A program made the position numbers and the translations under genes. Positions 26,370 through 48,342 of a stretch of 64,000 nt of DNA are shown here, in pieces. Source of the DNA: a virus; IMG/VR virus record IMGVR_UViG_3300046514_000858, positions 29,746-93,745 of that record; one strand, 5' to 3'. Numbering within the stretch: the stretch's first letter is position 1; the number at the start of each line of letters is the position of its first letter. The notes beneath the pieces were generated by a model. That model had not been told where the DNA came from and made no database searches. It saw only the letters and a list, made by a program, of their open reading frames with translations.

Positions 26370-27350
26370 ATGGCGCAGAATGTTGGCCTCGGCATGCGGT
26401 CTCACATCGGCTTCGGAGACGAAGTCGTTTGGGGAAGCGCAGTCGCCCGCACCCACTTCATCGAACTCATCTCCGAAAGCATCTCGAAGCAGGTCGCGCG
26501 GATCGAGTCCAACTCCGTTCTCCGCCGCGGCGTCCTGAACGACCACGTCATCGCCGGGATGATCTCCGTGGCGGGCGATCTGGTCTTCGACGCGACGTAC
26601 GGCGGATGGCTCAAGATCGCCAAGCACGCCTTCGGCTCCGTCGACACGACCCAGCCGGACGTGACGAACGCGCCCACCGCGTACCAGCACGTCTTCACAA
26701 TCTCCGACACCCCGCTCGCGGGCATGACCATGGAGGTCTTCCGCGACAGCTCCCAGTTCGTGACGGAGCCCAACAAGGCGTTCGTCTACCGGGGCATGAA
26801 GGTGTCGAGCATCGAGTTCTCGTGCGGCGTCGACGAGATCCTGCGCGTGACCGCGAGCCTGATCGGCACCGACGAGACGCGCGAGGCGAAGAGCACGCCC
26901 TCGTACGGCACCTCGAAGGTCTCCGTCTACCATCAGGGCATCGTCAAGTGGAACGACGTCGACGTCGAAGTCGACCACTTCACCCTGAAGCTCGACAACG
27001 GCTTCGGCCCCCGTCCCAAGCTGGGGTCCCAGTACAGCCGCGAGCCGGTGCCCGAGAACAAGCTGTCCCTGTCCGGCTCCTTCGAGATGGAGTTCGCCTC
27101 GTGGGCCGAGTACGACGACTTCTCGGCGACGACCCAGCGCGAGTTCAAGGTCTCCTTCACGGGCGACCTCATCGCCGCGGGGGTCTACGAGGAGATCATC
27201 CTGACCTGCCCCGTCTCGCTGCTCGACAACGTGCGCGTCCTGATCGACAAGCCCGGCCGCATCAAGATCGCGGCCGACTTCAAGGCGTACCGCACCACGC
27301 TGGCGAACGAGTGCACCATGACCGTGCGCAACACGGACACCGTGATCTGA
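26370..27350 (+). CDS. major tail tube protein
   Basis: GFG.E..WG, SES, V.GD..F, AY.H.FT, Y.G.KV.S.EFS, L.LDNG, SGSFE..F. Confidence 0.85.
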   Translation: MAQNVGLGMRSHIGFGDEVVWGSAVARTHFIELISESISKQVARIESNSVLRRGVLNDHVIAGMISVAGDLVFDATYGGWLKIAKHAFGSVDTTQPDVTNAPTAYQHVFTISDTPLAGMTMEVFRDSSQFVTEPNKAFVYRGMKVSSIEFSCGVDEILRVTASLIGTDETREAKSTPSYGTSKVSVYHQGIVKWNDVDVEVDHFTLKLDNGFGPRPKLGSQYSREPVPENKLSLSGSFEMEFASWAEYDDFSATTQREFKVSFTGDLIAAGVYEEIILTCPVSLLDNVRVLIDKPGRIKIAADFKAYRTTLANECTMTVRNTDTVI

Positions 27351-27421
27351 ACCGGCTCGGGCCCCGCGGGACCTTGTAAGCCCCGGGGTCCAGCCGCCAT
27401 TGCTGAGTTTTTGAGGAACGT

Positions 27422-27838
27422 ATGGAAACCGCCAAAGAGACCCCCACCTCCGAGCTGCGCGAAATGGCCAAGGGCAGTCTCGTGACCGCTCCGGTCGTCA
27501 AGGATCGCGACGGCAAGGATTGGACCCTCCTTCCCCTCGACCTCTCCGATATCGTCGACTACGAAGAGTCGGTCGGTGATTCGCTGTTCAGCGAGTCGCT
27601 CGGACAGATCAAGGCCAAGAACATCATGTTTCTGATGTACCTCTCGCTCCGCAAGACCGGCTGCAGCGATGCCGATCTGGAAGCGAAGAAGTACGCCTTC
27701 CCCGGCTACCGCGCCTTCCTCCGCCGGTTCAACGTCGGAGCGTTCGTGGAGTCGGTCACGGCCCTGCCCGCGCTCCTGCAGATGTCGGGGCTGGATCAGG
27801 AGAAGAGTGCCGCAAACCCTCAGAAGGCGGACCAGTAA
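27422..27838 (+). CDS. tail assembly chaperone (G-like)
   Basis: Between tube and tape measure; slippery heptamer near the 3' end. Confidence 0.8.
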   Translation: METAKETPTSELREMAKGSLVTAPVVKDRDGKDWTLLPLDLSDIVDYEESVGDSLFSESLGQIKAKNIMFLMYLSLRKTGCSDADLEAKKYAFPGYRAFLRRFNVGAFVESVTALPALLQMSGLDQEKSAANPQKADQ

Positions 27839-28068
27839 AGCGGCGGCGCAAACTCAGGGACGCCACCATCGACTGGTTCGCCCTCTACAAGGGCCTCCGC
27901 AACGAACACATCGTTACGTCGCGCAGCGAGTTTATGCGACTGAACATCGGACAGATCCGCTTCTTCCTCCGTAAGCAGGACGAGCAGGCGGCGCTGAAGA
28001 AGAAGTCCAAGGAGCTGAACGACAAGCTGAAGGCGCAGGAGGCTGCGCGTAAGAAGCTGGACACATAA
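27814..28068 (+). CDS. -1 frameshift extension of the tail chaperone (GT-like), slip site A AAC CCT
   Basis: X XXY YYZ heptamer at 27814-27820 in the correct phase; -1 frame open for 83 codons to TAA 28066-68. Confidence 0.8.
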   Translation, partial: KPSEGGPVKRRRKLRDATIDWFALYKGLRNEHIVTSRSEFMRLNIGQIRFFLRKQDEQAALKKKSKELNDKLKAQEAARKKLDT

Positions 28069-28069
28069 G

Positions 28070-30571
28070 ATGGGCGTAACGAACGAACAGGTCCTGACCG
28101 CGGTCCTTCGCATGCGCGACGAGCTGTCGCCGGGCATGAAGAAGGCTCAGCAGGCGACCAGCGATTTCGACAAGACGATGGGCGGCGTCAAGAAGACGCT
28201 CATCACCCTCGGAACCATACTGGCCGGGCTACAGGTCGCCCAGTTCATCAAGAGCATCATCAACACCGCCAGCGAGCTCGAAAAGCTGTCGAAGCAGACG
28301 GGCGTCTCCACCACCAACCTGCAGAAGATCGCCGCGTCCGCCAAGTCCGCGGGCGGGGACATTCAAGACGTCGCGATGGGCTTCCGCACGCTCAGCATCA
28401 ACGCCCAGCAGGCCGCCGCGGGCAATGATGTGGCGCGGGCTAAGTTCGAAGGTCTCGGCATCAGCATTCGTGACGCCAGCGGCAAACTCAAGAGCGCCGA
28501 GATTCTCTTCGGTGAGGTCGCGGATGTCATCCACGACACCGAGAGCTCGACCCTGCGCATGACCATCGCTCAAGAGCTGTTCGGACACTCTGCCCTGCGC
28601 CTCCTCCCGACACTCGAACAGGGCCGGGATGGTCTGTACGCTGTCGGCGATGCAGCGGAGCGGTTCGGCGGGATCCTGAGCAAGGACTCGGTCAAGGCCC
28701 TCGACGATTTCGGGAATCAACTCACCGCGACCAAGGATGTCATGACGGCGGTGATCGGCAACTGGCTGGTCCAGTCGGGCGTCACCGTGCCCGCGATCAT
28801 CGACCTGTTCGGCAAGCTGGTGCAGGGCGTGCAGGGCGTCATGCTGGGCTGGAAGATCATTTTCAATTCCGCGTGGCAGACGATCAAGTTCTTCGCCAAC
28901 GCGGTCAATGATATCCTGACCGGCATTGTCACGACCATCGCGGTCTTTCTCGCCAAAGCCCTGCATCCTATGACCGAGTTCGCCAAGACTCTGCTCCAGT
29001 GGTTCGGCAAATACCTGCCGGATGGCATCAAGGATACCCTCGGCGGCCTGATTTCCTTCGCCGACAACCTTGCGGGCAAGGGACTCGTCGATCCGCTGCA
29101 GGAGACTATCTCCAAGATCGACAAAGGTTGGGAGCAGCTCGGCACGAACGTCGACAAGTACAACAACGAGACCGCGGCGAACACCGTCGAAAAGGTCGAC
29201 CTGACCCTCAACAAGCTCGAAGAGCTCAAGGCCGCCATCGGAGCGGTCAGCGGCACGGCTAAGAAGGCCGCCGCCACGCCTGTTCTGAGTGCTTCGGCCG
29301 CGCTCGACGATCTCCTCCGTCTCGGCGGCGAGGCGACAAACGCCGGACCGAACGGCAAGGTCTCGGATGCAGAGCGCGAGATCCGCATGAAGGAAGCCTC
29401 TCTGCGGAGCAAGCTGCAGGCTTTTCAGGAGGAAACCGGCATCAAGGTCACCACCGAACAGCTCCGCCAACTCGCTATCGCGGCGCAGCAGGGCGATGAG
29501 TCGCTCAAGAAGATGCTGGACGACATCAAGCGGATGGCGGAGGCCGACCCGTTCACCGGTTTCGAGCTGGCGATCTACGATCTGTCGAAGGCGTCCTACT
29601 CCTTCCGCGACGCGTGGACGGGGATTTTCAATGACCTGAAGTCTGGCTTCTCGGACATGTTCGCCAACGCCATCGAGGGCACGGACAGCTTCTCGAACGG
29701 CTTCAAGAAGGCGATGAAGTCCCTTAAGCACGACCTGATCAAAATGTTCACGGACTTCGCCACATCGTCGCTGTTCCAGTCGGCGGGCGGCGGCCTCCTC
29801 GGAATGCTGGGCCTCGGCGGGGGCGTGAGCGGAGCTCCGGGATCCACGACCGGCCCCGGCAGCAACAACATGGCGCAGCAGGGCACGAACATCGCCGGGC
29901 AGGCGCTCTCCTCCGGCGGCGTGACCATGTCCAACTTCACCACCGCTCTGGGCGGGGTCGGCATGAGCGCGGGATCGCTCGGTGCGGTGGCCGGGCTCGG
30001 CGCGGCCGGTACTGCGCTGGCGGTGAGCGGCGTCTCGAACGGCAACGTCACACAGGGCACGGTCGGCGGCATCGTGGCGGGCGCGAGCATGGGCGCTATC
30101 GTGGGATCCATCATCCCGGGCCTCGGCACCGTGGCGGGCGCGGTCATCGGTGGCATCATCGGCGGCGTCACGGGCTACCTCGGCTCCAGCCGCAAGAAGC
30201 GCAAGAAGGCGCGCGAGGCCGCCCGGCACGCGGCGGAGGCGCTGGCCGCCTACAACGCTGCCATCGCCAAGGCCCGCGTCGTCCTGAAGCAGGACATCCG
30301 GAATAAGATGGGCGGCGGGCTGGCGACCGAGGAAGCGGCCTCCGACTACGGGCGGCTCTTCTCCGGTGACCTCTCGGCCGACGAGATCATGGCCTTCGGC
30401 GATCCCGCCGCGGTGGCCGCGAAGGCGTCCGAGGTGAACCGGCAGACCAACGTCAACGCGCCCATCACGGTGAACGCGCAGATCACAGGCTCGTACGACG
30501 TTGCCGTTCTCGCGCAGGAGCTGAGCTACCATCTGCAGAATCAGATGGGCGGTTCGGCGGGAGGCATCTGA
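28070..30571 (+). CDS. tape measure protein
   Basis: 833 aa Ala/Gly-rich helical; LSKQTGVST..LQ, A.ELFG, LLP.L. Confidence 0.9.
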   Translation: MGVTNEQVLTAVLRMRDELSPGMKKAQQATSDFDKTMGGVKKTLITLGTILAGLQVAQFIKSIINTASELEKLSKQTGVSTTNLQKIAASAKSAGGDIQDVAMGFRTLSINAQQAAAGNDVARAKFEGLGISIRDASGKLKSAEILFGEVADVIHDTESSTLRMTIAQELFGHSALRLLPTLEQGRDGLYAVGDAAERFGGILSKDSVKALDDFGNQLTATKDVMTAVIGNWLVQSGVTVPAIIDLFGKLVQGVQGVMLGWKIIFNSAWQTIKFFANAVNDILTGIVTTIAVFLAKALHPMTEFAKTLLQWFGKYLPDGIKDTLGGLISFADNLAGKGLVDPLQETISKIDKGWEQLGTNVDKYNNETAANTVEKVDLTLNKLEELKAAIGAVSGTAKKAAATPVLSASAALDDLLRLGGEATNAGPNGKVSDAEREIRMKEASLRSKLQAFQEETGIKVTTEQLRQLAIAAQQGDESLKKMLDDIKRMAEADPFTGFELAIYDLSKASYSFRDAWTGIFNDLKSGFSDMFANAIEGTDSFSNGFKKAMKSLKHDLIKMFTDFATSSLFQSAGGGLLGMLGLGGGVSGAPGSTTGPGSNNMAQQGTNIAGQALSSGGVTMSNFTTALGGVGMSAGSLGAVAGLGAAGTALAVSGVSNGNVTQGTVGGIVAGASMGAIVGSIIPGLGTVAGAVIGGIIGGVTGYLGSSRKKRKKAREAARHAAEALAAYNAAIAKARVVLKQDIRNKMGGGLATEEAASDYGRLFSGDLSADEIMAFGDPAAVAAKASEVNRQTNVNAPITVNAQITGSYDVAVLAQELSYHLQNQMGGSAGGI

Positions 30572-31344
30572 TGGCCACTCCTTCGATCAAGTTCGATAGC
30601 GTCGACCTCGCCGAGTACATCGCGACGTGGGGCGAGAACGCCAACGCCCGCATCAACGCCGTCACGGTCCCCCGGCGGCACGGTGCCCTCATCACGGAAT
30701 CCGTGGTCGAGGACGCCCGGACCATCAACGTCGCGGGCCGGATCTCCGCCGACACCGCCTCGGGCCTGCGCGATCTGCTGGACGCTCTGTCCGAGCTCTT
30801 CACGCGCCGCGGCAAGCGTCTGCAGCTCTGGGACGACCGGTACATCGTGGCCTACAAGGCGACCTTTGCCTTCGCGTACGTGGTCGGCTCGGCCCTGCGG
30901 GCGGTCGACTTCACGCTCCAGTTCTTCTGCCCCGACCCGTTCTGGTACGGCACCTCGGCAGAGACCACGAACTACGACCTGACCGAGGCCGACGTCCCGC
31001 TCGACATCACCAACAACAAGTACCGCCGGACGATCACGATCAACAACCCCGGCAGCGCCTACATCTTCCCGCTCATCACGGTCACGACCGGCCTTGAGCC
31101 CCTGACCACGATTGTGGTGCGGAACATCACCAGCGGCCGGTATTTCGTGTACACCGGGACGCTTCCCATCGGCAAGGCGCTCGTGATCGACATGGCCAAT
31201 TTCACGGTCAACAACGACGGCGTCGAGGACCTGACCAACTTTCAGGGCGACTTCTTTGCCCTCCAGCCGGGGGACAACGAGATCCAGATCGAGGGCACCG
31301 CCCCGGCCAACTACCAGTTCGACTACCCCATCCGGTACAACTGA
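30571..31344 (+). CDS. distal tail protein (Dit-like)
   Basis: VP.RHG, R.I...G.I, F.CPDPFWYG, I.N.G.....P, G.FF.LQPG.NEI. Confidence 0.85.
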   Translation: MATPSIKFDSVDLAEYIATWGENANARINAVTVPRRHGALITESVVEDARTINVAGRISADTASGLRDLLDALSELFTRRGKRLQLWDDRYIVAYKATFAFAYVVGSALRAVDFTLQFFCPDPFWYGTSAETTNYDLTEADVPLDITNNKYRRTITINNPGSAYIFPLITVTTGLEPLTTIVVRNITSGRYFVYTGTLPIGKALVIDMANFTVNNDGVEDLTNFQGDFFALQPGDNEIQIEGTAPANYQFDYPIRYN

Positions 31345-32021
31345 TGAACCGGGAGGACTTCCTCTTCCCGGCCGGTACCGTCGCCGCCCGGCCCCGGCGG
31401 AGGGGTCTGGCCCGTATGATGGTGCTGGACCGCGCCACGGGCGATTTAACGCATCGTACGGTCCAAAACCTCCCAGAGTACCTTTCCGGCTGGGAAACGT
31501 GGGCAAACGCCTCCTACGCAGCGCAGCACCCCAATCCAGAGCTGCACCCCCTCTACGCCGCCGTTCCGGGGTCCCACGCCACCCCCAGCGCCGGGATCCC
31601 CCTGCCCGAGGATGTGGTCAAACGGCTGGAAATCAAGACGTTCACTCTCCACATCGGCGGTCCAAGAGATCAGCCGGACATTCGCCAAGGATTCAAGACC
31701 GGGGTGGGCTGGCGGGAATGGTACCAAATTCCCGCCCCGCCCAAGACCCCGGTCGCTGCCATCGGAACGACGGCGGTCAAGGCCATGGAGACGTGGGCTC
31801 GAACCGGCCAGCTTGAAGGCTGGAGCGACCTCTTCATCCAGCCCCCCTTCGAGTTCAAGGCTGTCGGGAAGCTGCTGACGAATTGGCACTTTCCCGGCGA
31901 GCCGCTGCTGGCGCTGACCTGCGCCTTCGGCGGATATGAATTTGTGCGTGAGGCATACGAGGCGGCTGTGGCCGAGAAGTATCTCTTCTCCTGCTACGGC
32001 GACCGCCTCCTGATCATCTGA
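31344..32021 (+). CDS. queA: QueA-like protein lacking the inserted beta-barrel domain
   Basis: A.RP...ARMMVLDR..G...H, YA..PGS.A.PSAG, TLHIG, AIGTT..KA.E, LFI.P, LLTNWH.P, AF.G....EAY..AV..KY.F..YGD.LLI; only 225 aa. Confidence 0.85.
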   Translation: MNREDFLFPAGTVAARPRRRGLARMMVLDRATGDLTHRTVQNLPEYLSGWETWANASYAAQHPNPELHPLYAAVPGSHATPSAGIPLPEDVVKRLEIKTFTLHIGGPRDQPDIRQGFKTGVGWREWYQIPAPPKTPVAAIGTTAVKAMETWARTGQLEGWSDLFIQPPFEFKAVGKLLTNWHFPGEPLLALTCAFGGYEFVREAYEAAVAEKYLFSCYGDRLLII

Positions 32022-35000
32022 TGAGTTGCACGGGTCCGGCCCCGACCTTCGCGGATATCGGCGATTGGGTCCTCTCTCACGACGGATCCGGTTGCGAGAA
32101 CACCGCCACCATCCACGTCAACGCCGAGTGCGGCTCGTCCGGCTACACCGTCAAGCTCATCCGCACCATCGACGGATCCGACACGACGGTCTACACGGCC
32201 TCCATCCCCAACGGACCTTTGACGGCGATGGCGTTCTCGTACGAGGACCTTCCGCCGTGCGGGCACAAGACCATCGAATACCGCTGGGAGATCCAGTGCG
32301 ACGGCGTCCTGCAGTCGACCAGCTACAACATGTCGACGGATCAGGGTGGCGGCCAGACCCTGACCGGGCACACGATCAATGTCTCCTCGTGCGAGGCCAC
32401 CGACCAGATCCGGGTGCAGCAGAATTGCGGCAACTGCGCGGCCACCCTCAAGCTCTATCGGTCGGCCATCAACTCCTCGGTCACCTTCGATCCGGGCGAG
32501 GTGATTTACACGGTTTCCGTCGGCGCGGGCGTGACCGACCAGACGTACTCGTACGGCGACACTCCGACCTGCGGCTACGGCCAGTACCACTACCAGTGGC
32601 GGCTCACGCCGTCCGATGACGCGGCGATCACGTCGGACGAGCAGACGTACGATCAGGAAACCGCCCCGACAGTCGACGGCTTCACGCTGACCCCCGCAGG
32701 TTGCGACAACGTTGCCAGCGTCCACGTTCTCCAACCCTGCGGCCGGTGCGGTGCGATCCTGAAACTATACCGCCACTTCAACGGCTCGGTGGCCTTCAGT
32801 CCCGACGAAGTCATCCACACGGAAGATGTGCCGCAGGGATTCTCCGATGCCACGTACAGCTACACCGACACGCCCTCTTGCGGTAAGGGAACGTGGCACT
32901 ACGCGTGGAAGCTGGAATGGGACAACGGCTCGACCGGCGTCGCGGAGCTCACGGCCGATGGCGCGCTCCCGGCAACCCTCGTCGATCACGAGATCGCCAA
33001 AGACGCCGAGTGCAACATCACCAACAAGATCAAGGTCACGAATCCCTGCCTCGCGTGCGCGGGCACGATCAAGCTCTATCGGAAGCTCAACTCCGCGCCC
33101 GCGGGCGTGCCGGGCGAGCTGATCTATACCGACGCCGTCCCGGCGGGGCTGATCGTCCACAAGCAGTACATCTACACCGAGCATCCGGGAGACGGGCACT
33201 GGTACTACGAGTGGTCGGTCGTGGATGTGGACGGCAACGTCGACGACACGCTGCCTCCCAAGGACATCACGGTCGACTGCACGGTCTACGTTCCCGCCCG
33301 GGTCACGCTGCCTTCGGATGCGTTCGAGAAGCAGGTCGTGCTCGTGCAGGTCACGGGATCCCCCGCGGGCGGGCTGATCTTCACCGACAAGCAGATTCTC
33401 AATCTCGCCGAGCAGCGGCTGGAGTGGTGGTACCACAAGAACGGCGGCTGTGCCTACTTCCGGATCCTGACCCACGAGTTCCTCGACGGCGCGGACTTCA
33501 CCGACGCGATGGATGAGTCGTGGGAGGTCCACGTCCGCATCAAGCTGGGCGGCGAGGACACGTACACGACGTGGTACCGCGGCGTCATCCGATCCATCAA
33601 GCAGCAGGAACAGGGCACCGACCTCTACATGGACGTCCGCGGCTACGGCTACGTCGAGATGCTCAACAACATCATGGTCCAGCGGGAGTATCCCGTGGGC
33701 ATGACGGTCAAAGAGATCGTCGACGACATCATCGACAAGGACGTCCGGCCGTGGACTCGCATCGTCCGGCCGAGCGACATCGACGTCACGAACGGCGACA
33801 GCGGCGTCGATCCGTCCGGCTATGCCATCAAAGACCGCGTCCACTTCGAGTGCTCCGCCCTCACCGCGATCAAGTTCCTCGCCGAGCTGCAGGGCGACCG
33901 TGAATGGGGAGTTGACGCCCTCCGGCGCTTCTACTTCCGGGCCAACAACTCGGATGTCGTGGCCAACTTCTTCCTGCTGAAGGACGTCATCGACCGCGTC
34001 GCGGGCGGCAAGATCCTCGGCCAGACCAACAGCTACAAGATGGCGGGCAAGTCCTTCGGCGCACGCGACTATCTCAAGGTGCGCGCGGACGTGACGGACG
34101 CCACCGCCGTGGGCCGCCGCGAGAAGGCAGTCGAGCTGCCGTGGCTGGAGGGCGACCTCGACGCCAGCCGCTGGGCCGACAACATCATCGGCATCAATCG
34201 GGGTGGGCAGCAGTGGGCCGTCATCACGAAGAAGCACGTCACCCAGCGCCTCGACGCCTCGCACCCGTTCGGCCGGGTCACCGTGTACGGCTCGGACATG
34301 TCGAACGACGTGCACACGTACGACATCGCCAAGATCCAGTACATCGAAGGCGGCCCGCGCGCGCCCGCGGAGGTGCGCGAGAAGGGCGTGCCCAAGAAGA
34401 CGGCCGACAACGACCAGCCGCTGAAGGTCCAGTATTACCTCGGCCACTACCCGAACGATCTGATCGACGAGCTCAAGGAAACCCTGCGCGACCAGATCGA
34501 GGCGCTCAAGGGCCGCCATAAGCAGTTCCGCTATCCCAACGACATCACGAACGAGGCGATTCTCATTCCGGGCAAGATCCCGGGCGAGATGAAGTTCTAC
34601 CACAAGGTTCCGGACGTCACGAACACGGATGTCCTGAACAGCGCCATCGACCTCTCGGACCCGACGAACCCCCGCGGCTCGCAGGTCGTCTGGATCGGCG
34701 GCCAGTGGGTGAAGGTCTCTGTCCGGCGCACGTTCACCTCCCTGTCCGGCGTCCGGGGCCTGTACATCGGCGAAGTCGCCTCGGTCATCACCGACATCAC
34801 CAACAGCTCGTTCGGTGTGATGTACTGGTGGAACGGGCTGGTCTGGGACGTGGTGGGCTCTGGAAGCGGCGGCGGTGGGGGCGGCGGGTCCTCCGTAGGT
34901 TCCGACCCTCCCACGACCATCCTTCCGGACGATGCGCCGAATCCCGGTGTGTCCGCGCTGGCCTCGCGCCAAGACCACCGTCACGGCATCGCCGCGGACG

Positions 35001-35368
35001 TCGCCGGGCCCATCGCGATTGGCGACAGCGCGGCCGAGGGCGTTGCGACCAGCTTCGCGCGTTCGGACCATCGGCACTCTGTGCCCGCGGGCACGCCGGT
35101 CGACATCACGAACGCGAACGCGGACGGCGTCGCCACGACGTTCGCGCGCTCCGATCACAGGCACCGCGGCATCCGTACCGTGAAGGTGAAGGGTCAGGCC
35201 GACATCGACGGCTACGTCGACATCACGGCCGGGCTCTACATCCGCGTCACGCAATCCGGTCAGACCCTTACGTTCGATGTTGATGATCTGGTGGCCTACA
35301 TCAACACGCTTGCTTTGGCCGCCTATAACCCGATCACCGATCCGGTGTTCTGGTCTCTCATGGGGTGA
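32021..35368 (+). CDS. large tail/baseplate protein: four Cys-rich repeats, Tal/hub-like middle, fibre-type C-terminus
   Basis: Repeated C..C...KLYR...D.P.CG units; GGC..F, W.G.I, GY...L, LAEL.G.REWGVD..R.FYFR; ARSDHRH repeats. Confidence 0.8.
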   Translation: MSCTGPAPTFADIGDWVLSHDGSGCENTATIHVNAECGSSGYTVKLIRTIDGSDTTVYTASIPNGPLTAMAFSYEDLPPCGHKTIEYRWEIQCDGVLQSTSYNMSTDQGGGQTLTGHTINVSSCEATDQIRVQQNCGNCAATLKLYRSAINSSVTFDPGEVIYTVSVGAGVTDQTYSYGDTPTCGYGQYHYQWRLTPSDDAAITSDEQTYDQETAPTVDGFTLTPAGCDNVASVHVLQPCGRCGAILKLYRHFNGSVAFSPDEVIHTEDVPQGFSDATYSYTDTPSCGKGTWHYAWKLEWDNGSTGVAELTADGALPATLVDHEIAKDAECNITNKIKVTNPCLACAGTIKLYRKLNSAPAGVPGELIYTDAVPAGLIVHKQYIYTEHPGDGHWYYEWSVVDVDGNVDDTLPPKDITVDCTVYVPARVTLPSDAFEKQVVLVQVTGSPAGGLIFTDKQILNLAEQRLEWWYHKNGGCAYFRILTHEFLDGADFTDAMDESWEVHVRIKLGGEDTYTTWYRGVIRSIKQQEQGTDLYMDVRGYGYVEMLNNIMVQREYPVGMTVKEIVDDIIDKDVRPWTRIVRPSDIDVTNGDSGVDPSGYAIKDRVHFECSALTAIKFLAELQGDREWGVDALRRFYFRANNSDVVANFFLLKDVIDRVAGGKILGQTNSYKMAGKSFGARDYLKVRADVTDATAVGRREKAVELPWLEGDLDASRWADNIIGINRGGQQWAVITKKHVTQRLDASHPFGRVTVYGSDMSNDVHTYDIAKIQYIEGGPRAPAEVREKGVPKKTADNDQPLKVQYYLGHYPNDLIDELKETLRDQIEALKGRHKQFRYPNDITNEAILIPGKIPGEMKFYHKVPDVTNTDVLNSAIDLSDPTNPRGSQVVWIGGQWVKVSVRRTFTSLSGVRGLYIGEVASVITDITNSSFGVMYWWNGLVWDVVGSGSGGGGGGGSSVGSDPPTTILPDDAPNPGVSALASRQDHRHGIAADVAGPIAIGDSAAEGVATSFARSDHRHSVPAGTPVDITNANADGVATTFARSDHRHRGIRTVKVKGQADIDGYVDITAGLYIRVTQSGQTLTFDVDDLVAYINTLALAAYNPITDPVFWSLMG

Positions 35369-35371
35369 TGC

Positions 35372-35704
35372 ATGGCTGGAACGCCGAAATGCCTGATTCA
35401 GTACCTGTTCACCAACGCGCTGACGACCGCCGTCACCGTCCCGGCGAACAAGCGTTGGACCGTGTCCATGATCCATGTGACGAACATCGACACGGTGCAG
35501 CGCACCTTCACGATCCATCACGTCGCGAGCGGAGACAGCGCGGCGGATAAGAACAAGCTCGCGAAGGCGGCGGCCCTCCCGGCGGCCGACTACTGCGAGT
35601 TCTTTGGCGGGGCCGTGATGGCGACGGGCGACTCGATTCAGGGTAACTCCGATGCCAACAACGGCATCTCGATTCAGGTCTACGGCATTGAGGAGTCCGT
35701 CTGA
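35372..35704 (+). CDS. small tail-associated beta protein
   Basis: TVPA.....V..I.VTN.D...GD.I.G...I..YG.E. Confidence 0.7.
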   Translation: MAGTPKCLIQYLFTNALTTAVTVPANKRWTVSMIHVTNIDTVQRTFTIHHVASGDSAADKNKLAKAAALPAADYCEFFGGAVMATGDSIQGNSDANNGISIQVYGIEESV

Positions 35705-36612
35705 TGCCTCGTGGTATCTCCCGTCATAGAGGAGCAGAAAAGCAGACGATCCTCGACTTGGATACGAGGACCATCACTGCTCTGGCGGCCGACACCGACG
35801 ACTGGGCTGACCTTCTGGTCGGCGCGGCGTTCGCCATCGGCTGCACCGGAGCCGACCGCACGGTCAAGGGCATCGCGGGCGGGCGCGAGGGACGCACCAT
35901 TGAGCTGATCAACGTGCTCGGCTACAACGTCTTCCTGCAGAACGAGGCCACGTCCTCGGTCGCCGGAAACCGCATCCTGACCGGCATGCCGAGCAACGCG
36001 TCCTTCCAGATCCCGCCGAACGGCGCGGTGTTCCTGACCTATAACAACACCGTCAATCGCTGGGTTGTTGCCCACGGGAACGTGAACTACTACCCCGAGA
36101 CGGATGCCAACGTCGCCGTGCTGTTCCGCAACAAGAAACCGAATCGCGCGGGCGGCATGATGACGCAGGGCACCTTCCTGCAACTGCTCGGCACGTCTCA
36201 GGGATTCCTCAAGCCGAAGTTCACCGCCAAGACCAGCGGCGACATCGGCAATCAGGCGTTCGGAGTGGTCTCTGGCGCTCAGGTATCCTTCACGATGCCC
36301 GCAGCCGGAGACGTGATTGTCGCTGTGCATGCCACTTCTAAATCCGGCACGCCCGGGGCGGTAGTGGCCATCGCTTCGGCTATCGGTGTAAGATTCGACT
36401 CTGATACGGCTCTGGTCTTGAACAGCGTGGACATGGTCAACGGCGGCGGCTCGGACTACATCAACGCCTTCCCTCTCTTTGGAGTGTGGGGCAAGTCGCT
36501 CGCTGCTGGCGCTCATACGGCTGATCTTTGTTGGGGAGACTCGTCCGGAAACTACGGCATGTACGCCGACGCGTCCCATCCTGCAGTCATCGCAGTTTTG
36601 TATCCGGGGTAA
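35704..36612 (+). CDS. tail fibre/receptor-binding-like protein
   Basis: I.GI.GG..G..I.L.N....L.NE...S...NRI...Y......W, then a beta-rich domain. Confidence 0.65.
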   Translation: MPRGISRHRGAEKQTILDLDTRTITALAADTDDWADLLVGAAFAIGCTGADRTVKGIAGGREGRTIELINVLGYNVFLQNEATSSVAGNRILTGMPSNASFQIPPNGAVFLTYNNTVNRWVVAHGNVNYYPETDANVAVLFRNKKPNRAGGMMTQGTFLQLLGTSQGFLKPKFTAKTSGDIGNQAFGVVSGAQVSFTMPAAGDVIVAVHATSKSGTPGAVVAIASAIGVRFDSDTALVLNSVDMVNGGGSDYINAFPLFGVWGKSLAAGAHTADLCWGDSSGNYGMYADASHPAVIAVLYPG

Positions 36613-36614
36613 GC

Positions 36615-37010
36615 ATGGGCATCACGCGATTCAATCAGTGGGAAGATCCGAGCCCCGTGATCGGCAAGGCTGATTTCGAGTGGTTCTACTCTGGCACTCT
36701 GCAGATCAACGACGACAACAAGATCCCGGTGAAGTCCAAGAGCATAGACGTCTACATCAACAAGCTGGAAGTGCTGCTGTACAGCGCGGCGGTCGATTCG
36801 GACGTCACAAACGGAGCCGTGGTCGTGAAGTTCTACAAGAACGCCGTCCTGATTGATCAAGTGCGCGTCGTAGGCGGGGCCGTGCAGGCTTCGACGACCA
36901 TCGCCCGCACTCTGGTCACGGCGGGCGACCGCATGACGGCGTCGATCACGCGCGTCGGCACGACCAATTACGGCATCACAGCTTCCATGTACGCGCGGGT
37001 GACGACGTGA
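36615..37010 (+). CDS. tail-associated beta-sandwich protein
   Basis: Beta-rich; AGD.MT..IT.VG. Confidence 0.6.
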   Translation: MGITRFNQWEDPSPVIGKADFEWFYSGTLQINDDNKIPVKSKSIDVYINKLEVLLYSAAVDSDVTNGAVVVKFYKNAVLIDQVRVVGGAVQASTTIARTLVTAGDRMTASITRVGTTNYGITASMYARVTT

Positions 37011-39518: not shown

Positions 39519-40118
39519 ATGACCACGAAGCTGCATATCGGCTGCGGCACCGTTTATCTGGACGACTGGATCAACGTTGACGTGCCCTCCTCGGATTGTC
39601 ATCTCGCCACCGACCGCCCAGATCTCGTCGCCAAGTACCGCACCACGGCCGACGACTATTACGCCCGGCACAAGAAGACGGTCGAGGATCTTCGCAAGGG
39701 GCCGCTCCATCAGGAGTACGTCTGCGACCGCTACGGGTCGTACGAGTTCCTCCCCGCCGCGCCCGGCACGATCACCGAGATCCTCGCGCGACATAGTTTC
39801 GAGCACCTCTCCATCACGGAAGCCCGGCGTGCGCTCGTTCTTATGAATAGGGTTCTCGCGGCCGACGGACAGCTTGTGCTGGACGTGCCCGATCACGAGG
39901 CTACGCTCCGGCTCTACCGAGAGACCGGTGACGAGTTCTTCGTGCGCCATCTGCTCGGCCCACGGAGAAACGACTGGGGTTTTCATTGCATGAGCTACAC
40001 GCCGGAACGTCTGGACGGGCTCTTGCATGACTACGGCTTCTCCCTGATCGCCGACGAGCCCAACATCCACGTCTACCCCGCCTTCTGCCGTCGTTACGTG
40101 AAGCGCGAGGCGATCTGA
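39519..40118 (+). CDS. SAM-dependent methyltransferase
   Basis: KLHIGCG....DWINVD, HSFEHL, RVL...G.L...VPD. Confidence 0.85.
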   Translation: MTTKLHIGCGTVYLDDWINVDVPSSDCHLATDRPDLVAKYRTTADDYYARHKKTVEDLRKGPLHQEYVCDRYGSYEFLPAAPGTITEILARHSFEHLSITEARRALVLMNRVLAADGQLVLDVPDHEATLRLYRETGDEFFVRHLLGPRRNDWGFHCMSYTPERLDGLLHDYGFSLIADEPNIHVYPAFCRRYVKREAI

Positions 40119-40813
40119 TGGATCAGCCCCTTCTGAGCGTGATCGTCGGCACTATTGATCGCCCTCAGCACATCGCCAACTGCATCGAATCCGTCCGGCG
40201 GCACACGACCATTCCTTACGAGCTCATTGTCGGCGACGCATCCGAGCGGCATCCTCCACTGGTTTCCAGCGGCCCCCTACGCGTCGTACGGGAGAAGCCT
40301 CGTCTCGGCCACGCCAAGGGCTACAACCAGCTCTTCCGGCAGGCCCGCGGCAAGTGGGTCTGCTGGCTGAACGACGACGCGCGCGTCACGCCCGGCTGGG
40401 CCAACAACGCGGTCGCGTTCATGGAGTACACCCCATGGGTCGGCCTCGGGTGCTTCTACTACTCCGAGCACGGCTGCTGCTTCCACCTCTCCCAGTATCA
40501 GGATTTCATCTACGCCAACTTCGGGATCCTGTCGAAGCAATTCGGCGACCGCATCGGGTGGTTCGATGAGTGCGTCCGGATGTATGGGGCCGACAACTCC
40601 ATCACCTTCAAGACGATCCTCGCCGGGAAGGGCGTGTCCGGCATCCCCGGCGCGAAGATCATGCACGAGCCCATCTCGGACGACATTCGCCGCGGCAACA
40701 TGGCGGGACAAAAATCCGACGAGAAAGCGCTTTTGGACAAGTATCGACCGTTCATGTGGGAAATGAAGAAGTCCATGGCGCGCCTTCCGCAGTCACCATT
40801 GAGGATTCCATGA
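40118..40813 (+). CDS. glycosyltransferase family 2
   Basis: LSVIV.T.DR, YELIV.D, YN....ARG..V..LNDD, G.FDE....Y..D. Confidence 0.88.
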   Translation: MDQPLLSVIVGTIDRPQHIANCIESVRRHTTIPYELIVGDASERHPPLVSSGPLRVVREKPRLGHAKGYNQLFRQARGKWVCWLNDDARVTPGWANNAVAFMEYTPWVGLGCFYYSEHGCCFHLSQYQDFIYANFGILSKQFGDRIGWFDECVRMYGADNSITFKTILAGKGVSGIPGAKIMHEPISDDIRRGNMAGQKSDEKALLDKYRPFMWEMKKSMARLPQSPLRIP

Positions 40814-41226
40814 TCAAGAAGACGACGATCTCGTTCCACGATACCGGCGACCGCGGTGATCTCGCCGTCTTCGATCTGCCGGGCCCGGAGTGGCAGGGCG
40901 TCCGGACATGTCCATTCGAGCCCCGCCGGATCTTCTGGATCACGAACATGCAGCAGCTCGGCCGCCGGGGCGGCCACGCGCATCGCAAGGGCGAACAGTT
41001 CCTCTTCTGCCCGACCGGCGGCGTCCAGATCGCGTACCAGTGCCCGGAAGGCAAGGGGCTGGTGGTGCTGAAGGGCTCCAGCGTCGGCGCGTACGTCCCG
41101 CCTCTGCACTGGCTGGACATCCGGAACCTGCACACGAAGACGGTGCTCGTCGTGCTGGCCTCGAATCCGTATGACGAAGCGGACTATATCCGCGACCCCG
41201 AGGAGTTCAAGAGGCTCTGCAAGTGA
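40810..41226 (+). CDS. fdtA: dTDP-4-keto-6-deoxyhexose 3,4-isomerase (FdtA/QdtA, cupin)
   Basis: D.RG.L, PF..RRIFWI, RG.HAH....Q, YVPP..W, VLAS..YDEADYIRD. Confidence 0.88.
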   Translation: MIKKTTISFHDTGDRGDLAVFDLPGPEWQGVRTCPFEPRRIFWITNMQQLGRRGGHAHRKGEQFLFCPTGGVQIAYQCPEGKGLVVLKGSSVGAYVPPLHWLDIRNLHTKTVLVVLASNPYDEADYIRDPEEFKRLCK

Positions 41227-42299
41227 AGGTTCCCTACCACGACCTGCAGCCGATCCTCGACATCGAATCCTCCGCCATCGCGGACGCCATGGCTCGCGTC
41301 ATGAAGTCGGGCCGCCTGATCCTCGGGCCGGAAGTGGAAGCATTCGAGTACGAGCTCGCCGAGCGGATGGGATACGCCCACGCCATCGGAGTGGCCAACG
41401 GCACGGACGCCATTGAGCTCGTGCTGGCCCAGCGCCCCTCACACGGCGGCAACGAGGTGCTAGTCCCGGCCAACAGCGCGCCCGCGACGGTGACCGCGGT
41501 CATGCGCGCCGGATGCAGGCCGGTATACTGCGAGGTCCAGCGCAACGGGATTATCAACCCGGAGAAGCTGGGCTACTTCCTGACGCCCCAGACCTTCGCC
41601 GTGCTGGCAGTGGACCTGTATGGACAGCCCTGCGACTACCGGGCGCTGGCCAACTTCGCACACGCGCGCCAGCTCGCGCTCTACTCCGACGGCGCGCAGG
41701 CGTTCGGATCTCAGAGCACCGCCCGACTCTACGTCAACGCCCAGACCATCAGCTTCTACCCGACCAAGGCGCTCGGCGCGCTTGGGGACGGGGGCGCGAT
41801 CCTGACCAACGATCAGGGTCTGATGCTCGACCTCCGGGCCCGGCGCTTCTACGGGATCTACGACCGCCGCACCCTGCAGCAGGACTTCCTCGGCTGCAAC
41901 TCCCGGCTGGACGAGCTGCAGGCCGCGATCCTGCGTGAGCGCATGGATGTCGCCGAGAAGTGGTGCGAGGTCCGCCGCGCGGTGGCGTGGTTCTACCACA
42001 AGTGGATCCGGACCGATCTCCAGCGCCGCTCCTACGACCACAACCAGAACTACCACATCTTCAACATCCACTGCCAAGATCGGGACGGATCCCGCGAGCG
42101 GCTGGCCGGGCGAGAGATCGAGACGGCCATCCATTATCCGATCCCGGCGCACCGCCAGTCCCCCAGCGCCGCGCCGTATCGCGACTTGCCGATCACTGAA
42201 GACTTCTGTCGGACGACGCTGTCACTACCGATCTGGGTCGGGATGTCCGACGACCAGATCCATAGTGTAGTGGGCGGCGTCAACGAGTTGTGCAAATGA
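41223..42299 (+). CDS. DegT/DnrJ/EryC1/StrS PLP sugar aminotransferase (FdtB-like)
   Basis: LGPEVEAFE, VANGTDA, DLYGQ, D.AQA, SFYPTK.LGA.GDGG, NSRLDELQAA, IHYP.P.H. Confidence 0.93.
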   Translation: MKVPYHDLQPILDIESSAIADAMARVMKSGRLILGPEVEAFEYELAERMGYAHAIGVANGTDAIELVLAQRPSHGGNEVLVPANSAPATVTAVMRAGCRPVYCEVQRNGIINPEKLGYFLTPQTFAVLAVDLYGQPCDYRALANFAHARQLALYSDGAQAFGSQSTARLYVNAQTISFYPTKALGALGDGGAILTNDQGLMLDLRARRFYGIYDRRTLQQDFLGCNSRLDELQAAILRERMDVAEKWCEVRRAVAWFYHKWIRTDLQRRSYDHNQNYHIFNIHCQDRDGSRERLAGREIETAIHYPIPAHRQSPSAAPYRDLPITEDFCRTTLSLPIWVGMSDDQIHSVVGGVNELCK

Positions 42300-43351
42300 A
42301 GATCGCCTTCGTCGACACCTACTATCCTGACGTCCTCGTCGGGCGTGACAAGGTCTCGTACGCGTCGCGCATGGCCGATCTGATGCGCCTCCACTTCGGG
42401 ACGGCGTACTACTACTCCGACGCGTTCAAGAAGATGGGCTGGACAGCCATCGACATCATCGGGAACGACACGGATGGCCGCAAGCTCTGGTGCGCCGAGG
42501 CGGGCCTCACGTACGAGAACGATCAGGCGTCCGTCATCGACCAGCTCGTCATCTTCGAGCCGGACATCGTTTACATGCAGGACCTCGGCTTCTTCGAACC
42601 CACCCAGATCGCGGGTCTCAAGAAGCGCCTGTACTGGAAGTTTGTGTCCCAGCACTCCTGCCCGTGGGCCGGAGACAACCGCATTAAGGCGTTCGACGCC
42701 GTCTTCTCGTCCTTCCCGCACTACCTTCCGCGGATCTCCGCGCTGGGCGTTCAGACGTCCATGCTGCCCATCGCTTTCGGCCACCGCGTGCTGGAGCACA
42801 TCAAGCCCCAGCGCCGCGACCTACCCGTGACGTTCGTCGGGGGTCTGAACGGCACGAGCGGGCACTGGGCGCAGGGCACTGTGATGATGGAGCATGTCGC
42901 TGCCGAGGTCCCGGCCTTCAAGTGGTGGGGCTACTTCATCGGCGAGCCGCGCAACTACCCGGCGCTCCAGCGCACCTATCAAGGCCCGGCGTGGGGCATG
43001 AAGATGTACAACGTCTACGCCCGGTCGCAGATGGTGATCAATCGCCACGGCGAGGTTGCCGAAGGCTACTCCAACAACATGCGCATGTTCGAGGCGACCG
43101 GCTGCGGCGCGCTTCTGCTCACCGAGCAGTCGAAGAACCTGCACGATTACTTCGCGCCGGGCATGGAATGCGTCGCGTACCGTGAGCCCGCGGAGCTGGT
43201 CGACATTATCAACAAGCAACTCCTCTGGCAGCCCGAGCTGGTGGCCGACATCGCGAAGCGCGGACAGGCTCTCACGCTGGAGAACCACACGTACGAAAAG
43301 CGGCTCGCCCAGATCGAACCCTTCCTGCAGAAGATCGCGGCGGGCAAATGA
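42296..43351 (+). CDS. GT-B glycosyltransferase (CgeB/Glyco_trans_1_2-like)
   Basis: V.FVG, WG..MY.VYARS..VIN.H, NMRMFEATGCG..LLT, HTY..R. Confidence 0.88.
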   Translation: MKIAFVDTYYPDVLVGRDKVSYASRMADLMRLHFGTAYYYSDAFKKMGWTAIDIIGNDTDGRKLWCAEAGLTYENDQASVIDQLVIFEPDIVYMQDLGFFEPTQIAGLKKRLYWKFVSQHSCPWAGDNRIKAFDAVFSSFPHYLPRISALGVQTSMLPIAFGHRVLEHIKPQRRDLPVTFVGGLNGTSGHWAQGTVMMEHVAAEVPAFKWWGYFIGEPRNYPALQRTYQGPAWGMKMYNVYARSQMVINRHGEVAEGYSNNMRMFEATGCGALLLTEQSKNLHDYFAPGMECVAYREPAELVDIINKQLLWQPELVADIAKRGQALTLENHTYEKRLAQIEPFLQKIAAGK

Positions 43352-44274
43352 AGCACTACTGCACGCTGTTCGATCTGAACTACGCCGCCAAGGGCCTCGC
43401 CCTGTACGAGTCCATCGCCCGTCACTCTTCGGAGGACTTCATCCTCTGGACCGTGCCGATGAACGACAAGACGTGGGATTTCCTGCAGCACACCAAGAAT
43501 CTCCGACCGAACATGGCGGTCTTCCGCGACAGCGAGGTTTTCAACGACCGCTTCTGCAAGGCGGCATATGATCGAGAGATCAGCTACCGCTGCTTCATGG
43601 CGGCCCCTTGGCTACTACACCATCTCCTCGACATGCCGAGCATCGACGAGGCGACCTACCTTGACGCCGATCTGGGATTCTACGCCGACCCCAAGATCGC
43701 GCACGACGAGATGGGCGACAACTCCGTCGGCATCGTGCCTCACCGCTTCATGCCGCACGACGTCGCCCGGCTGTCGCCCAACGGCTGGTTCAACGTCTCT
43801 TGGGTCACGGTGAAGCGCGACAAGTGGGGGATGCCGATCCTGTCGCGCTGGCGCGAGCAGACGCTGGAGAAGTGCGACCGCGAAAGCTGCGGCGATCAGA
43901 AGTACCTAAACGAGTGGCCGACCTTCTGGAACGAAGACGGCGACGGCGTGCACATCTTCAGCCATGAAGGCATTGGCGTCGCTCCGTGGAACGCCATGAA
44001 ATATCGTTTCTTCCCGGGCCCCAAGATCGCGCTGCAGGACGGCCCGGGGTTCGGATCGTGGCAGAAAAAGGAGATCGTCTTCTACCACTACCACGAGCTG
44101 AAGCGCCGCGCGAAGAACGATTATCAACTGACCGGCTACCCGCTACCCGAGGCGTGCAAGGAGCTGATCTACAAGCCGTACATAGCCCAACTTGAGGTGG
44201 GCGAGGATCTCATCACCGAATACGAAAGGACATCGCCATGGTCAAAATCCACTCCCTCCGCACCGACGACCTGA
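43348..44274 (+). CDS. GT-A glycosyltransferase
   Basis: YCTLFD.NY...GLALY.S, YLDADL.F, G.FN...V, GDQKYL..WP, APWN, FYH.H. Confidence 0.85.
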   Translation: MKHYCTLFDLNYAAKGLALYESIARHSSEDFILWTVPMNDKTWDFLQHTKNLRPNMAVFRDSEVFNDRFCKAAYDREISYRCFMAAPWLLHHLLDMPSIDEATYLDADLGFYADPKIAHDEMGDNSVGIVPHRFMPHDVARLSPNGWFNVSWVTVKRDKWGMPILSRWREQTLEKCDRESCGDQKYLNEWPTFWNEDGDGVHIFSHEGIGVAPWNAMKYRFFPGPKIALQDGPGFGSWQKKEIVFYHYHELKRRAKNDYQLTGYPLPEACKELIYKPYIAQLEVGEDLITEYERTSPWSKSTPSAPTT

Positions 44275-45188: not shown

Positions 45189-45281
45189 GACCCGCGGGTG
45201 GTATGTACCCGACCAAGTCCGGTCGGGGAGGACCGGGATTCCCGCCGCCGGACAACACCGGCTTCTAGGGTCCAAGATGGC

Positions 45282-45968: not shown

Positions 45969-45984
45969 TAGCAACGGATTGCCC

Positions 45985-46272
45985 ATGACTTCAGACGAAA
46001 AACTTGACCGTCTCAGCAACGAAGTACACCAGCTCGGACTCGGGCTCGCCCGAGTCGAAGGCGGGATCACGGCACAGAACGCCTTGCTGGGCCAGTACCG
46101 ACACGAGATCGCAGAGGCCAAGACCCAGACCAACAAGCTCGAAGGCCGCATCTGGGGCATCGTGATCGCCGTCGCCGGGTTCGGCCTCTCGTCCATCGCC
46201 GCCCTCGTCATGTCCGCCACCCTGCATACCAAAGCCCATGAGGCCGTCGCCATGGTGGCGCGGCTCTTTTGA
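45985..46272 (+). CDS. coiled-coil plus C-terminal TM protein (possible lysis-related)
   Basis: After GTCCAAG 45958; IWGIVIAVAGFGL TM segment. Confidence 0.55.
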   Translation: MTSDEKLDRLSNEVHQLGLGLARVEGGITAQNALLGQYRHEIAEAKTQTNKLEGRIWGIVIAVAGFGLSSIAALVMSATLHTKAHEAVAMVARLF

Positions 46273-46283
46273 TTGGAGTGACC

Positions 46284-47322: not shown

Positions 47323-47332
47323 GGAGATCACC

Positions 47333-48232: not shown

Positions 48233-48342
48233 TCCCCGGCGGATCGGGGTGTGATCGACTTGTGCCTGCTTATTCCGGGCGCTCGCCGTGAGGCCCAGAA
48301 GCCGCCACCCTGATCCGTCGATTATCAACGCTTGAGGAATCT

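Follow-up and report, generated by a model that had tools for sequence, protein, structure and literature searches.

A D-[VIP]-T-N motif recurring in the tail proteins of an uncultivated siphophage

Introduction

The tetrapeptide D-[VI]-T-N recurs in tail proteins of an uncultivated phage known from an IMG/VR record of ~94 kb (93,745 bp), and a cluster of glycan and glycosyltransferase (GT) genes, already recognised when the motif was noticed, does lie just downstream of the tail genes. The question is whether the motif is an acceptor site for these transferases, as originally predicted, or has another role in the tail. The analysis centred on a 64 kb stretch of the record, referred to as the window.

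Results

Six-frame translation of the window and of the whole record gave eight copies of D[VI]TN, all on the + strand and all in frame, at exactly the coordinates given in the original prediction (Table 1). The carriers are four tail genes, encoding the tail tube protein, the distal tail protein (Dit), the tail hub/Tal-like protein (Tal), which has five copies, and a 131-aa protein; the capsid has none. The motif had been described as confined to the tail and none was found elsewhere in the 93,745 bp by six-frame search. The near-matches noted at the same time, DLTN (Dit residue 220), DPTN (Tal 880) and NITN (Tal 332), are also present.

The flanks of the copies show 7% identity over ±12 residues and the codons vary; the motif is therefore a protein-level one and not a DNA repeat, in agreement with the original prediction. 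A DNA signal was ruled out as well, the flanks being unrelated and the codons tracking genome GC; in a relative with 43.5% GC the motif codons are AT-rich. The degenerate DNA word encoding the motif was found in frame in tail genes only. An internal protein repeat in Tal was rejected on the flank identity and because self-BLAST gave no off-diagonal matches.

Table 1 Positions in the window of the motif copies, their carrier genes and the glycan genes
Feature	Position	Strand	Basis or context
Major tail tube protein, 326 aa	26370..27350	+	PF18906, AF2, Foldseek
Tube DVTN	26658-26669	+	residues 97-100
Distal tail protein (Dit), 257 aa	30571..31344	+	PF22768 and PF05709 matches
Dit DITN	31003-31014	+	residues 145-148
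Dit DLTN	31228-31239	+	residues 220-223
Tail hub/Tal-like protein, 1115 aa	32021..35368	+	AF2, Foldseek, phrog_196
Tal 588, DVTN, within DIDVTNGDSGVD	33782..33793	+	ordered loop after helix 584-587, pLDDT ~82
Tal 690, DVTD	34088..34099	+	DVTDxTN in several homologues
Tal 841, DITN, within RYPNDITN	34541..34552	+	low-pLDDT region just past helix 814-836
Tal 865, DVTN, then TDVLN	34613..34624	+	conserved column
Tal 880, DPTN	34658..34669	+	DITN, DLTN or DYTN in homologues
Tal 925, DITN	34793..34804	+	end of strand 919-925, turn to strand 930-937 (AF2)
Tal 1028, DITN, between two SDHRH fibre repeats	35102..35113	+	conserved column
131-aa tail/baseplate protein, no known family	36615..37010	+	motif-bearing ORF
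131-aa protein DVTN	36801-36812	+	residues 63-66
Glycan/glycosyltransferase cluster A	39519..45968	+	Pfam and NCBIfam matches
GT2, cluster A	40118-40813	+	Pfam/NCBIfam
DegT aminotransferase, cluster A	41223-42299	+	Pfam/NCBIfam
GT1-like gene, cluster A	42290-43351	+	Pfam/NCBIfam
GT47-like gene, cluster A	44238-45188	+	Pfam/NCBIfam
Fcl-like reductase	48890-49849		Pfam/NCBIfam

From the composition of each protein, 0.32 copies of D[VI]TN are expected in 84 proteins, against the eight observed. For Tal alone the expectation is 0.043 against five, in line with the earlier rough estimate of well under one chance copy. When all tetrapeptides in which one position may be either of two residues are ranked by over-representation, D[VI]TN comes first (nominal p = 2e-9); 300 shuffled proteomes gave nothing as extreme, the best of them reaching 6.5e-9. 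A chance pattern at a nominal 8e-9 was seen in the real proteome of the relative G003, so the family-wise p for the window alone is about 0.003-0.01. When the motif is fixed from Tal, the p-value of the three copies outside Tal is 0.003 with all remaining proteins as the reference and 9e-5 with the remaining tail proteins. In three genomes, with GC contents between 43% and 63%, no pattern ranks higher than the motif. Glu does not replace Asp (observed/expected 1.4), whereas Ser in place of Thr is tolerated (12-fold).

A general bias of tail proteins was ruled out using 64 loci of distant phages that have the tube loop QPDxTNAPT and show no enrichment: over 105,000 aa of their downstream tail proteins there are 12 copies (2.2 expected), all but one of them from three relatives of the present phage. 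On the sequence evidence, D-[VIP]-T-N, with D-x-T as its core and the Asn less strict, is a real protein-level motif, conserved within one uncultivated siphophage lineage.

The tube protein matched PF18906 (Phage_tube_2; E = 1e-27, 97.6 bits, cut-off 27) and is built of two tube domains, as are P74-26 and T5 pb6. The best Foldseek matches of its AF2 model (pLDDT 96.8) were 8ed0 (TM-score 0.82) and T5 pb6, which supports the assignment to this family. In the model the motif is in loop 95-104 (pLDDT 98), between strands 89-94 and 105-111. This loop, as QPD[PVIA]TNAPT, recurs in 17 of 96 homologues and is present in tube proteins at ≤48% identity from phages without other copies. Judged by this distribution, it is clearly older than the Tal sites and independent of them. 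The equivalent loop of the P74-26 tube protein is acidic (EDDPDGDG) and is not described in the P74-26 tail tube paper.

The Dit pattern xD[IVFY]T.N is retained in 37 of 39 homologues; in remote Dits the motif hairpin of ~14 aa is absent, or an insertion of ~230 aa is found at the same place. In the 131-aa protein, D[VIL]T[NG]G is retained in 13 of 18 homologues and the other five have a 5-aa deletion.

The gene order is TMP, Dit, a QueA-like ORF and then Tal. AF2 predicts that Tal consists of beta-sandwich repeats (residues 1-420), a gp27/VgrG-like hub (430-780), a helix (814-836), a "neck" (837-947) and a fibre with SDHxH repeats (947-1115). Foldseek matched the model to VgrG, T4 gp27, Mu gp44 and siphophage Tal chains (E = 4e-13 to 1e-7), and there was a weak match to phrog_196 (baseplate hub). 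A hub fold encoded downstream of TMP and Dit supports its assignment as a gp27/VgrG-like hub. At the C-terminus, [RS]xDHxH repeats occur ~31 aa apart; the motif is not part of this repeat, as more than 40 proteins with such repeats are without D-x-T-N.

Counted as D-[VIP]-T-N with a less strict Asn, Tal has six to eight copies, mostly in the neck beyond the coiled-coil helix. The Tal sites are at homologous columns in ~20-22 homologues (32-62% identity over the full alignment), surrounded by conserved blocks (RYPNDVTN, ELQDITNPRG and DxDPTNGDSGVD). None of the 22 homologues departs from D690 or T692, and D841, D880, T882 and D925 are likewise invariant; conservation is at least 90% for D588, T590, T843, D865, T867, N868, N883 and T927. 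At Tal 588, where position 2 is V, I or P, the motif is missing from L004, L007, L008 and L034; DIDVTNGDSGVD is an acidic 12-residue stretch with D at positions 1, 3, 8 and 12. L008 has a run of DIT/DVT units inserted at 690. The TDVLN that follows site 865 is DVTN in most homologues, giving a tandem DVTNxDVTN, and this segment is deleted in L004 and L034. VD[IV]TNxNAEG is conserved around 1028 in close homologues.

From phage to phage the sites also come and go independently: in G004/L034 those of the tube, Dit and the 131-aa protein are kept and Tal has none, and G002 has many Tal sites and none in Dit. G001 and L023 have PDITN in a further family, a 164-aa protein encoded upstream of the tube, and G001 has additional Tal C-terminal sites and one copy in a 553-aa tail protein. 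Sites are gained and lost via small loop indels and tandem copies, and position 2 alternates between V/I and P at one and the same site. Remote homologues can still be aligned around Tal 588, 841, 865 and 925 and around the sites of the tube, Dit and the 131-aa protein, yet lack the motif, usually with shorter loops (2 aa shorter at Tal 841); it is therefore apparently not required by the folds. The original view of the motif as a convergently inserted tag is not supported, as every copy is at a position conserved among homologues, including the distant tube loop. On these alignments, the copies are of long standing and kept by selection, each as part of its own protein family. As to the surface-loop location that the original prediction proposed to check, the models place the sites in loops, a hairpin turn and the low-confidence neck, exposure being judged from secondary structure and pLDDT.

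No match was found among INPHARED phages by megablast and tblastn, in IMG/VR queried with the single Tal protein, or in PDB sequences with a Tal profile. The Tal alignment found no match in 185,000 prokaryote genomes and so gave no prophage relatives and no clue to the host. For the Tal neck, the ESM Atlas offered no more than a weak lead (0.79).

Homologues of cluster A were found in G001, G002 and L007; in G004 only the GT2 is seen, at the contig end. In each of the five relatives with cluster A one or more sites persist; two of these relatives (L007 and G004) are without any Tal site. G003 is the one relative with a different cluster, of GT and methyltransferase genes, and its sites in the tube, Dit and the 131-aa protein have been lost jointly, for which a rough estimate under independence is ~0.01; this comparison depends on a single contrasting genome, and phylogeny is a confounding factor. 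On the co-occurrence of motif and cluster that the original prediction proposed to check, the G003 swap speaks in favour and the Tal proteins of L007 and G004 speak against. With the evidence mixed in this way, it is only suggestive of a link to glycosylation.

Discussion

We tentatively favour, as the most likely reading, a structural role as a polar turn or strand cap, in which the Asp would share one face of an extended or Asx-turn-like segment with the Thr two positions further on. The motif would stabilise exposed loops and the oligomer-dependent neck of Tal. One Tal subfamily would have multiplied it, and the copies in the tube loop, the peripheral Dit hairpin and the 131-aa loop would be separate conserved structural elements rather than tags for one enzyme. 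This is preferred because the Tal sites are conserved inside larger conserved blocks, because swaps of V/I to P at position 2 fit an extended or turn conformation, because the tube loop is common to distant phages without enrichment downstream, because sites vary independently between phages and because known sequons do not fit and the capsid has no copy. However, the folds of remote homologues apparently do without the motif, five protein families of one virion module carry the same sharp tetrapeptide, and neither unrelated tails nor the remaining proteins of the phage are enriched in it. The occurrence in several families, the sharpness of D over E, the triple loss in G003 and the tandem copies suggest one shared trans-acting reader, which argues against a structural role.

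Possible, though rather unlikely, is a role of D-x-T-N as an acceptor sequon: cluster A and the Fcl-like gene would provide a cytoplasmic, phage-encoded glycosylation system acting on exposed loops of tube, Dit, hub and baseplate, and the motif would co-evolve with the cluster. The Thr would be O-glycosylated or, less likely, the Asn modified, and old sites would be kept by selection across the lineage. Virion O-glycosylation by phage-encoded enzymes has a precedent in mycobacteriophages (Freeman 2023, as cited in PMC12619734 and PMC13445384), but the motif matches no known sequon (PMC8550257) and a literature search gave no report of DVTN, DITN, DPTN or DxTN as a motif. The predicted placing of the sites in loops, a hairpin turn, a peripheral insertion point of Dit and the low-confidence neck would suit an acceptor, as would the demand for D and not E and for T more often than S, although at several sites the flanks are conserved as strongly as the motif. 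The restriction to the tail, with top rank in three genomes, and the turnover of sites by loop indels and tandem copies are likewise consistent with a sequon, but the capsid, the largest surface, has no copy and the tube loop is common among phages that have no further copies. The presence of sites in all five cluster A relatives and the loss of three in G003, where the cluster is swapped, are offset by the cluster A genes of L007 and G004, whose Tal has no sites, and DNA or host surface glycans could be the target of the cluster instead.

A shared docking or ion site would also fit the lineage-specific spread over several families and the joint loss in G003. The side chains of D, T and N in exposed loops would bind one lineage-specific partner: Ca2+/Mg2+, a protein of the decoration or side-fibre kind, or another post-translational enzyme. 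The stretch at Tal 588 resembles an EF-hand-like DxDxDG loop and the P74-26 counterpart of the tube loop is acidic; however, such a context occurs at one site only, no candidate partner was found and the sites are in rings of differing symmetry and radius, making this distinctly improbable. More doubtful still is coincidence, that is, a family-specific Tal motif matched by chance in the single tube, Dit and 131-aa copies and picked out post hoc. The corrected significance for the window alone is modest (best shuffle 6.5e-9 vs 2e-9, with 8e-9 by chance in G003) and the tube loop predates the Tal sites, but the non-Tal copies are significant once the motif is fixed from Tal, and G001 and L023 add copies in further proteins.

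If the motif does prove to be a structural turn or cap, it would mark a recurrent polar element in the tail hub neck, a useful if unsurprising annotation. A sequon would be the first defined for bacteriophage virion glycosylation; it would make glycosylation sites of virions predictable from phage genomes, provide a portable tag for glycoengineering phage tails and tie glycan-cluster swaps to site turnover. Under either reading the motif is a clean signature of the present Tal subfamily.

Comparison with known systems

Phage fibres contain short repeated polar motifs, an example being the HxH metal sites in the tip of T4 gp37. Tal is similar in that DHxH repeats flank one DITN and the neck has closely spaced copies; unlike fibre repeats, D-x-T-N also occurs singly in the non-fibrous tube and Dit folds. 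In the EF-hand-like DxDxDG loop the ligands are at positions 1, 3, 5 and 12 with Gly at 6. DIDVTNGDSGVD has D1, D3, T5 and D12, but N6 in place of the Gly.

The N-glycosylation sequons, N-x-S/T and, for Campylobacter PglB, D/E-x-N-x-S/T, likewise contain Asp, Asn and Thr, but here the Thr precedes the Asn and Pro is tolerated at position 2. One of the eight copies fits (DITNSS, Tal 925); from the Asn on, the other seven read NGD, NEA, NTD, NAN, NAP, NGA and NNK. The general O-glycosylation motif of Bacteroidota, D-(S/T)-(A/I/L/V/M/T) (PMC8550257), is also short and Asp-anchored, combines a hydroxyl with an aliphatic residue and is found in many unrelated surface proteins. There, however, the Ser/Thr directly follows the Asp and modification is periplasmic, whereas here the order is D-aliphatic/Pro-T-N, with V or I after the Asp and T at +2 in all eight copies, and tail proteins fold in the cytoplasm.

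The closest precedent for a sequon is the virion O-glycosylation of mycobacteriophages Che8, Corndog and Myrna (Freeman et al. 2023, Cell Host Microbe, as cited in PMC12619734 and PMC13445384). According to the citing papers, the glycans are at the C-termini of capsid and tube subunits (PMC12619734), and an internal tetrapeptide sequon is not reported in them; in the present phage the C-termini of capsid and tube are not Ser/Thr-rich. The present phage is known as an uncultivated IMG/VR record, and its capsid is without the motif. The two are alike in that the GTs are phage-encoded and structural proteins including the tail tube are proposed targets: the present phage encodes GT2, GT1-like and GT47-like proteins, together with a DegT aminotransferase and an Fcl-like reductase.

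Genome and tail module

The window (GC ~62%) covers bases 29746-93745 of an IMG/VR virus record of 93,745 bp that has direct terminal repeats, and carries a siphophage tail module. The tube protein is of the fused two-domain type, as are those of P74-26 and T5 (pb6), an analogy suggesting that the tail tube is probably built of trimeric, pseudo-hexameric rings. The QueA-like ORF was found at the equivalent position in the related phages G001 (67% identity), L034 (32%) and L092 (30%); it is missing from G002, G003, L007 and L008. The 269-aa and 261-aa paralogues both match the same regions of loci L003 and L004 and probably arose by duplication of a receptor-binding or baseplate protein.

Features of the tail module and adjoining genes (window positions)
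Feature	Position	Strand	Remarks
Tail tube, two-domain	26370-27350	+	PF18906; fold like P74-26 gp93 and T5 pb6
Tape measure protein	28070-30571		Between tube and Dit genes
Dit (distal tail protein)	30571-31344	+	Next after tape measure gene
QueA-like ORF, truncated, 225 aa	31344-32021	+	PF02547, E = 6e-39; between Dit and hub gene
Hub protein (Tal), 1115 aa	32021-35368	+	
Tal residues 1-420	32021-33280		
Tal fibre, residues ~947-1115	~34860-35368		
131-aa ORF	36615-37010	+	Among small proteins without known family, downstream of hub gene
Paralogous adjacent pair, 269 and 261 aa	37007-37816 and 37817-38602	+	
Glycan cluster (cluster A)	39519-49849		GT2, DegT aminotransferase, GT1-like, GT47-like, Fcl-like reductase

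Enrichment of the motif

The tetrapeptide D-[VI]-T-N had been proposed as a glycosylation sequon of the tail proteins. Six-frame translation of the window and the whole genome gave exactly the eight occurrences reported, and no others. From the composition of each protein only 0.32 copies are expected overall and 0.043 in Tal, so that the excess originally estimated was confirmed. In an unbiased scan of all tetrapeptides with one two-residue position permitted, the pattern not being chosen beforehand, D[VI]TN ranked first (nominal p = 2e-9); none of 300 shuffled proteomes reached this value. Since the best null was 6.5e-9 and a meaningless pattern scored 8e-9 in the real proteome of one relative, the corrected p for the window alone is ~0.003-0.01. 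When the motif was fixed from Tal, the three non-Tal copies gave p = 0.003, or p = 9e-5 among tail proteins. D[VI]TN was also the top-ranked pattern in G001 (63% GC) and G002 (43.5% GC). The enrichment is a genuine statistical feature, and it is replicated.

Flank identity between copies is only 7% and the motif codons track the GC content of each genome, in agreement with the differing codons and unrelated flanks noted originally. In 69 Tal-related proteins the observed/expected ratio was 35 for D[VI]TN and 24 for DPTN; it fell to 12 with Ser in place of Thr (D[VI]SN) and to 1.4 with Glu in place of Asp (E[VI]TN). The motif is one of protein sequence, and the forms tolerated are D-[VIP]-T-N.

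Enrichment as a general property of tail proteins was ruled out by a survey of 64 IMG/VR loci with tube homologues (105,000 aa of downstream tail ORFs). D[VIP]TN occurred 12 times against 2.2 expected, 11 of these copies coming from the relatives G002, L034 and L023; the other loci gave 1 copy against ~1.9 expected. These non-enriched loci include phages with the QPDxTNAPT loop in the tube, so the tube copy is independent of the cluster of sites in Tal.

Conservation of the sites

The tube DVTN lies within loop 95-104 (pLDDT 98 in the model). A broad subfamily of tube proteins conserves this loop as QPD[PVIA]TNAPT. D.TN is found there in 17 of 96 homologues (≤48% identity), and in many others the loop is 3-8 aa shorter. 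In Dit, xD[IVFY]T.N is conserved in 37 of 39 homologues; the proteins of G002, G003 and L008 are 2 aa shorter at the site and are without the motif. Remote Dits either miss the whole hairpin or have a ~230-aa insertion at that point, marking the hairpin as a peripheral insertion site. The 131-aa protein retains D[VIL]T[NG]G in 13 of 18 homologues, with a 5-aa deletion in the other 5. A fifth family is that of a 164-aa protein whose gene lies upstream of the tube gene: it reads PDITN in G001 and L023, and PAASM in the window phage.

The AF2 model of Tal comprises beta-sandwich repeats (1-420), a gp27/VgrG-like hub (430-780) and a long helix (814-836), followed by a neck (837-947) and a fibre, both modelled at low confidence. 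Relatives for site comparison were drawn from protein searches plus IMG/VR and metagenome loci. Across ~20 homologues (32-62% identity) columns 588, 690, 841, 865, 870, 880, 925 and 1028 are strongly conserved; D841, D880, T882 and D925 are invariant and position 2 of the sites interchanges V, I, P, L and Y. The Tal proteins of L004, L007, L008 and L034 (31-41% identity), still alignable across the motif region, have no motif at 588, 841, 865/870 and 925 (deletions of 2 aa and ~18 aa); all that remains in them is D-[VP]-T at columns 690 and 880.

Because sites are conserved among homologues in Tal, tube, Dit and the 131-aa protein, the copies are old and conserved. The alignments argue against recent convergent insertion, and the original prediction was wrong on this point; gain and loss of sites does occur, via small loop indels.

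Three further observations were made on Tal. In the homologue at L008:9668-11509 a ~40-aa insertion at the 690 position consists of repeated DIT/DVT units (…IDITDVTDITYDQPGDITQ…DITERDITDDIT…). The fibre bears [RS]xDHxH motifs, with a period of ~31 aa in related proteins; this repeat, present in 5-26 copies each in >40 large metagenomic proteins (26 in P0021), could be a fibre repeat of the His-x-His type that binds metal. The region upstream of the hub holds several confidently modelled beta-sandwich domains with conserved Cys pairs (consensus KPCGEC...) and an internal duplication of ~120 aa (tblastn against L002).

Co-occurrence with the glycan cluster

The relatives tabulated here all carry a GT cluster, of the A or G003 type.

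Glycan clusters and motif sites in related phages
Phage	Cluster	Tube	Dit	131-aa protein	Tal
G001	A	yes	yes	gene absent	yes
G002	A	DPTS	no	gene absent	many
L007	A	yes	yes	not seen	none
G004/L034	A (GT2 alone seen, at contig end)	yes	yes	yes	none
G003	different; GT + methyltransferase genes	no	no	no	almost none

The expected co-occurrence of motif and cluster held in part: G003, with a different cluster, is without the tube, Dit and 131-aa sites, but L007 and G004/L034 have cluster A and no Tal sites. For the triple loss in G003 the probability under independence is ~0.01, a rough, post hoc figure confounded by phylogeny. GT genes and motifs are both lacking in G010 and G011, two small, nearly complete genomes of remote relatives that are too distant to be informative.

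The G003 cluster (L009:823-10135) occupies the same position as cluster A, between tail genes and helicase, and encodes GT2, GT1 and GT1-like enzymes together with three SAM methyltransferases, of which one is a fusion with a GT2. The glycan cassette is swapped at a fixed locus in G003 relative to the window phage.

Interpretation of the motif

We tentatively favour a polar turn or cap, in which case the motif would be a structural element in each tail protein. Pointing this way are the strong conservation reaching into conserved flanking blocks, the exchange of V/I and Pro at position 2, the well ordered and widespread tube loop and the independent variation of sites between phages. So do the absence of the motif from the capsid and its failure to fit any known sequon, that of Bacteroidota included (PMC8550257); N-x-S/T is satisfied by one of the eight copies. 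A glycosylation sequon is a testable minority hypothesis that we consider rather unlikely. The sharp residue requirements, the spread of the motif over five protein families within a single module, the location of sites in loops and their concerted loss do, however, point to a common reader, for example a glycosyltransferase. That the sites instead bind a shared partner or ion is improbable, and coincidence more improbable again.

Comparison with known virion glycosylation

In mycobacteriophages, virion glycosylation is directed at the C-terminal ends of the capsid and tube subunits (as cited in PMC12619734 and PMC13445384); the capsid and tube C-termini of the window phage are not Ser/Thr-rich. 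An internal stretch rich in Ser, Thr and Pro lies at residues ~175-218 of its major capsid protein (window ~22510-22640; …TDPTTYLTPENTSDTPNLYPASTPSTGNVTLTASK…), and should the cluster glycosylate virions, that stretch would be a more conventional target for O-glycosylation.
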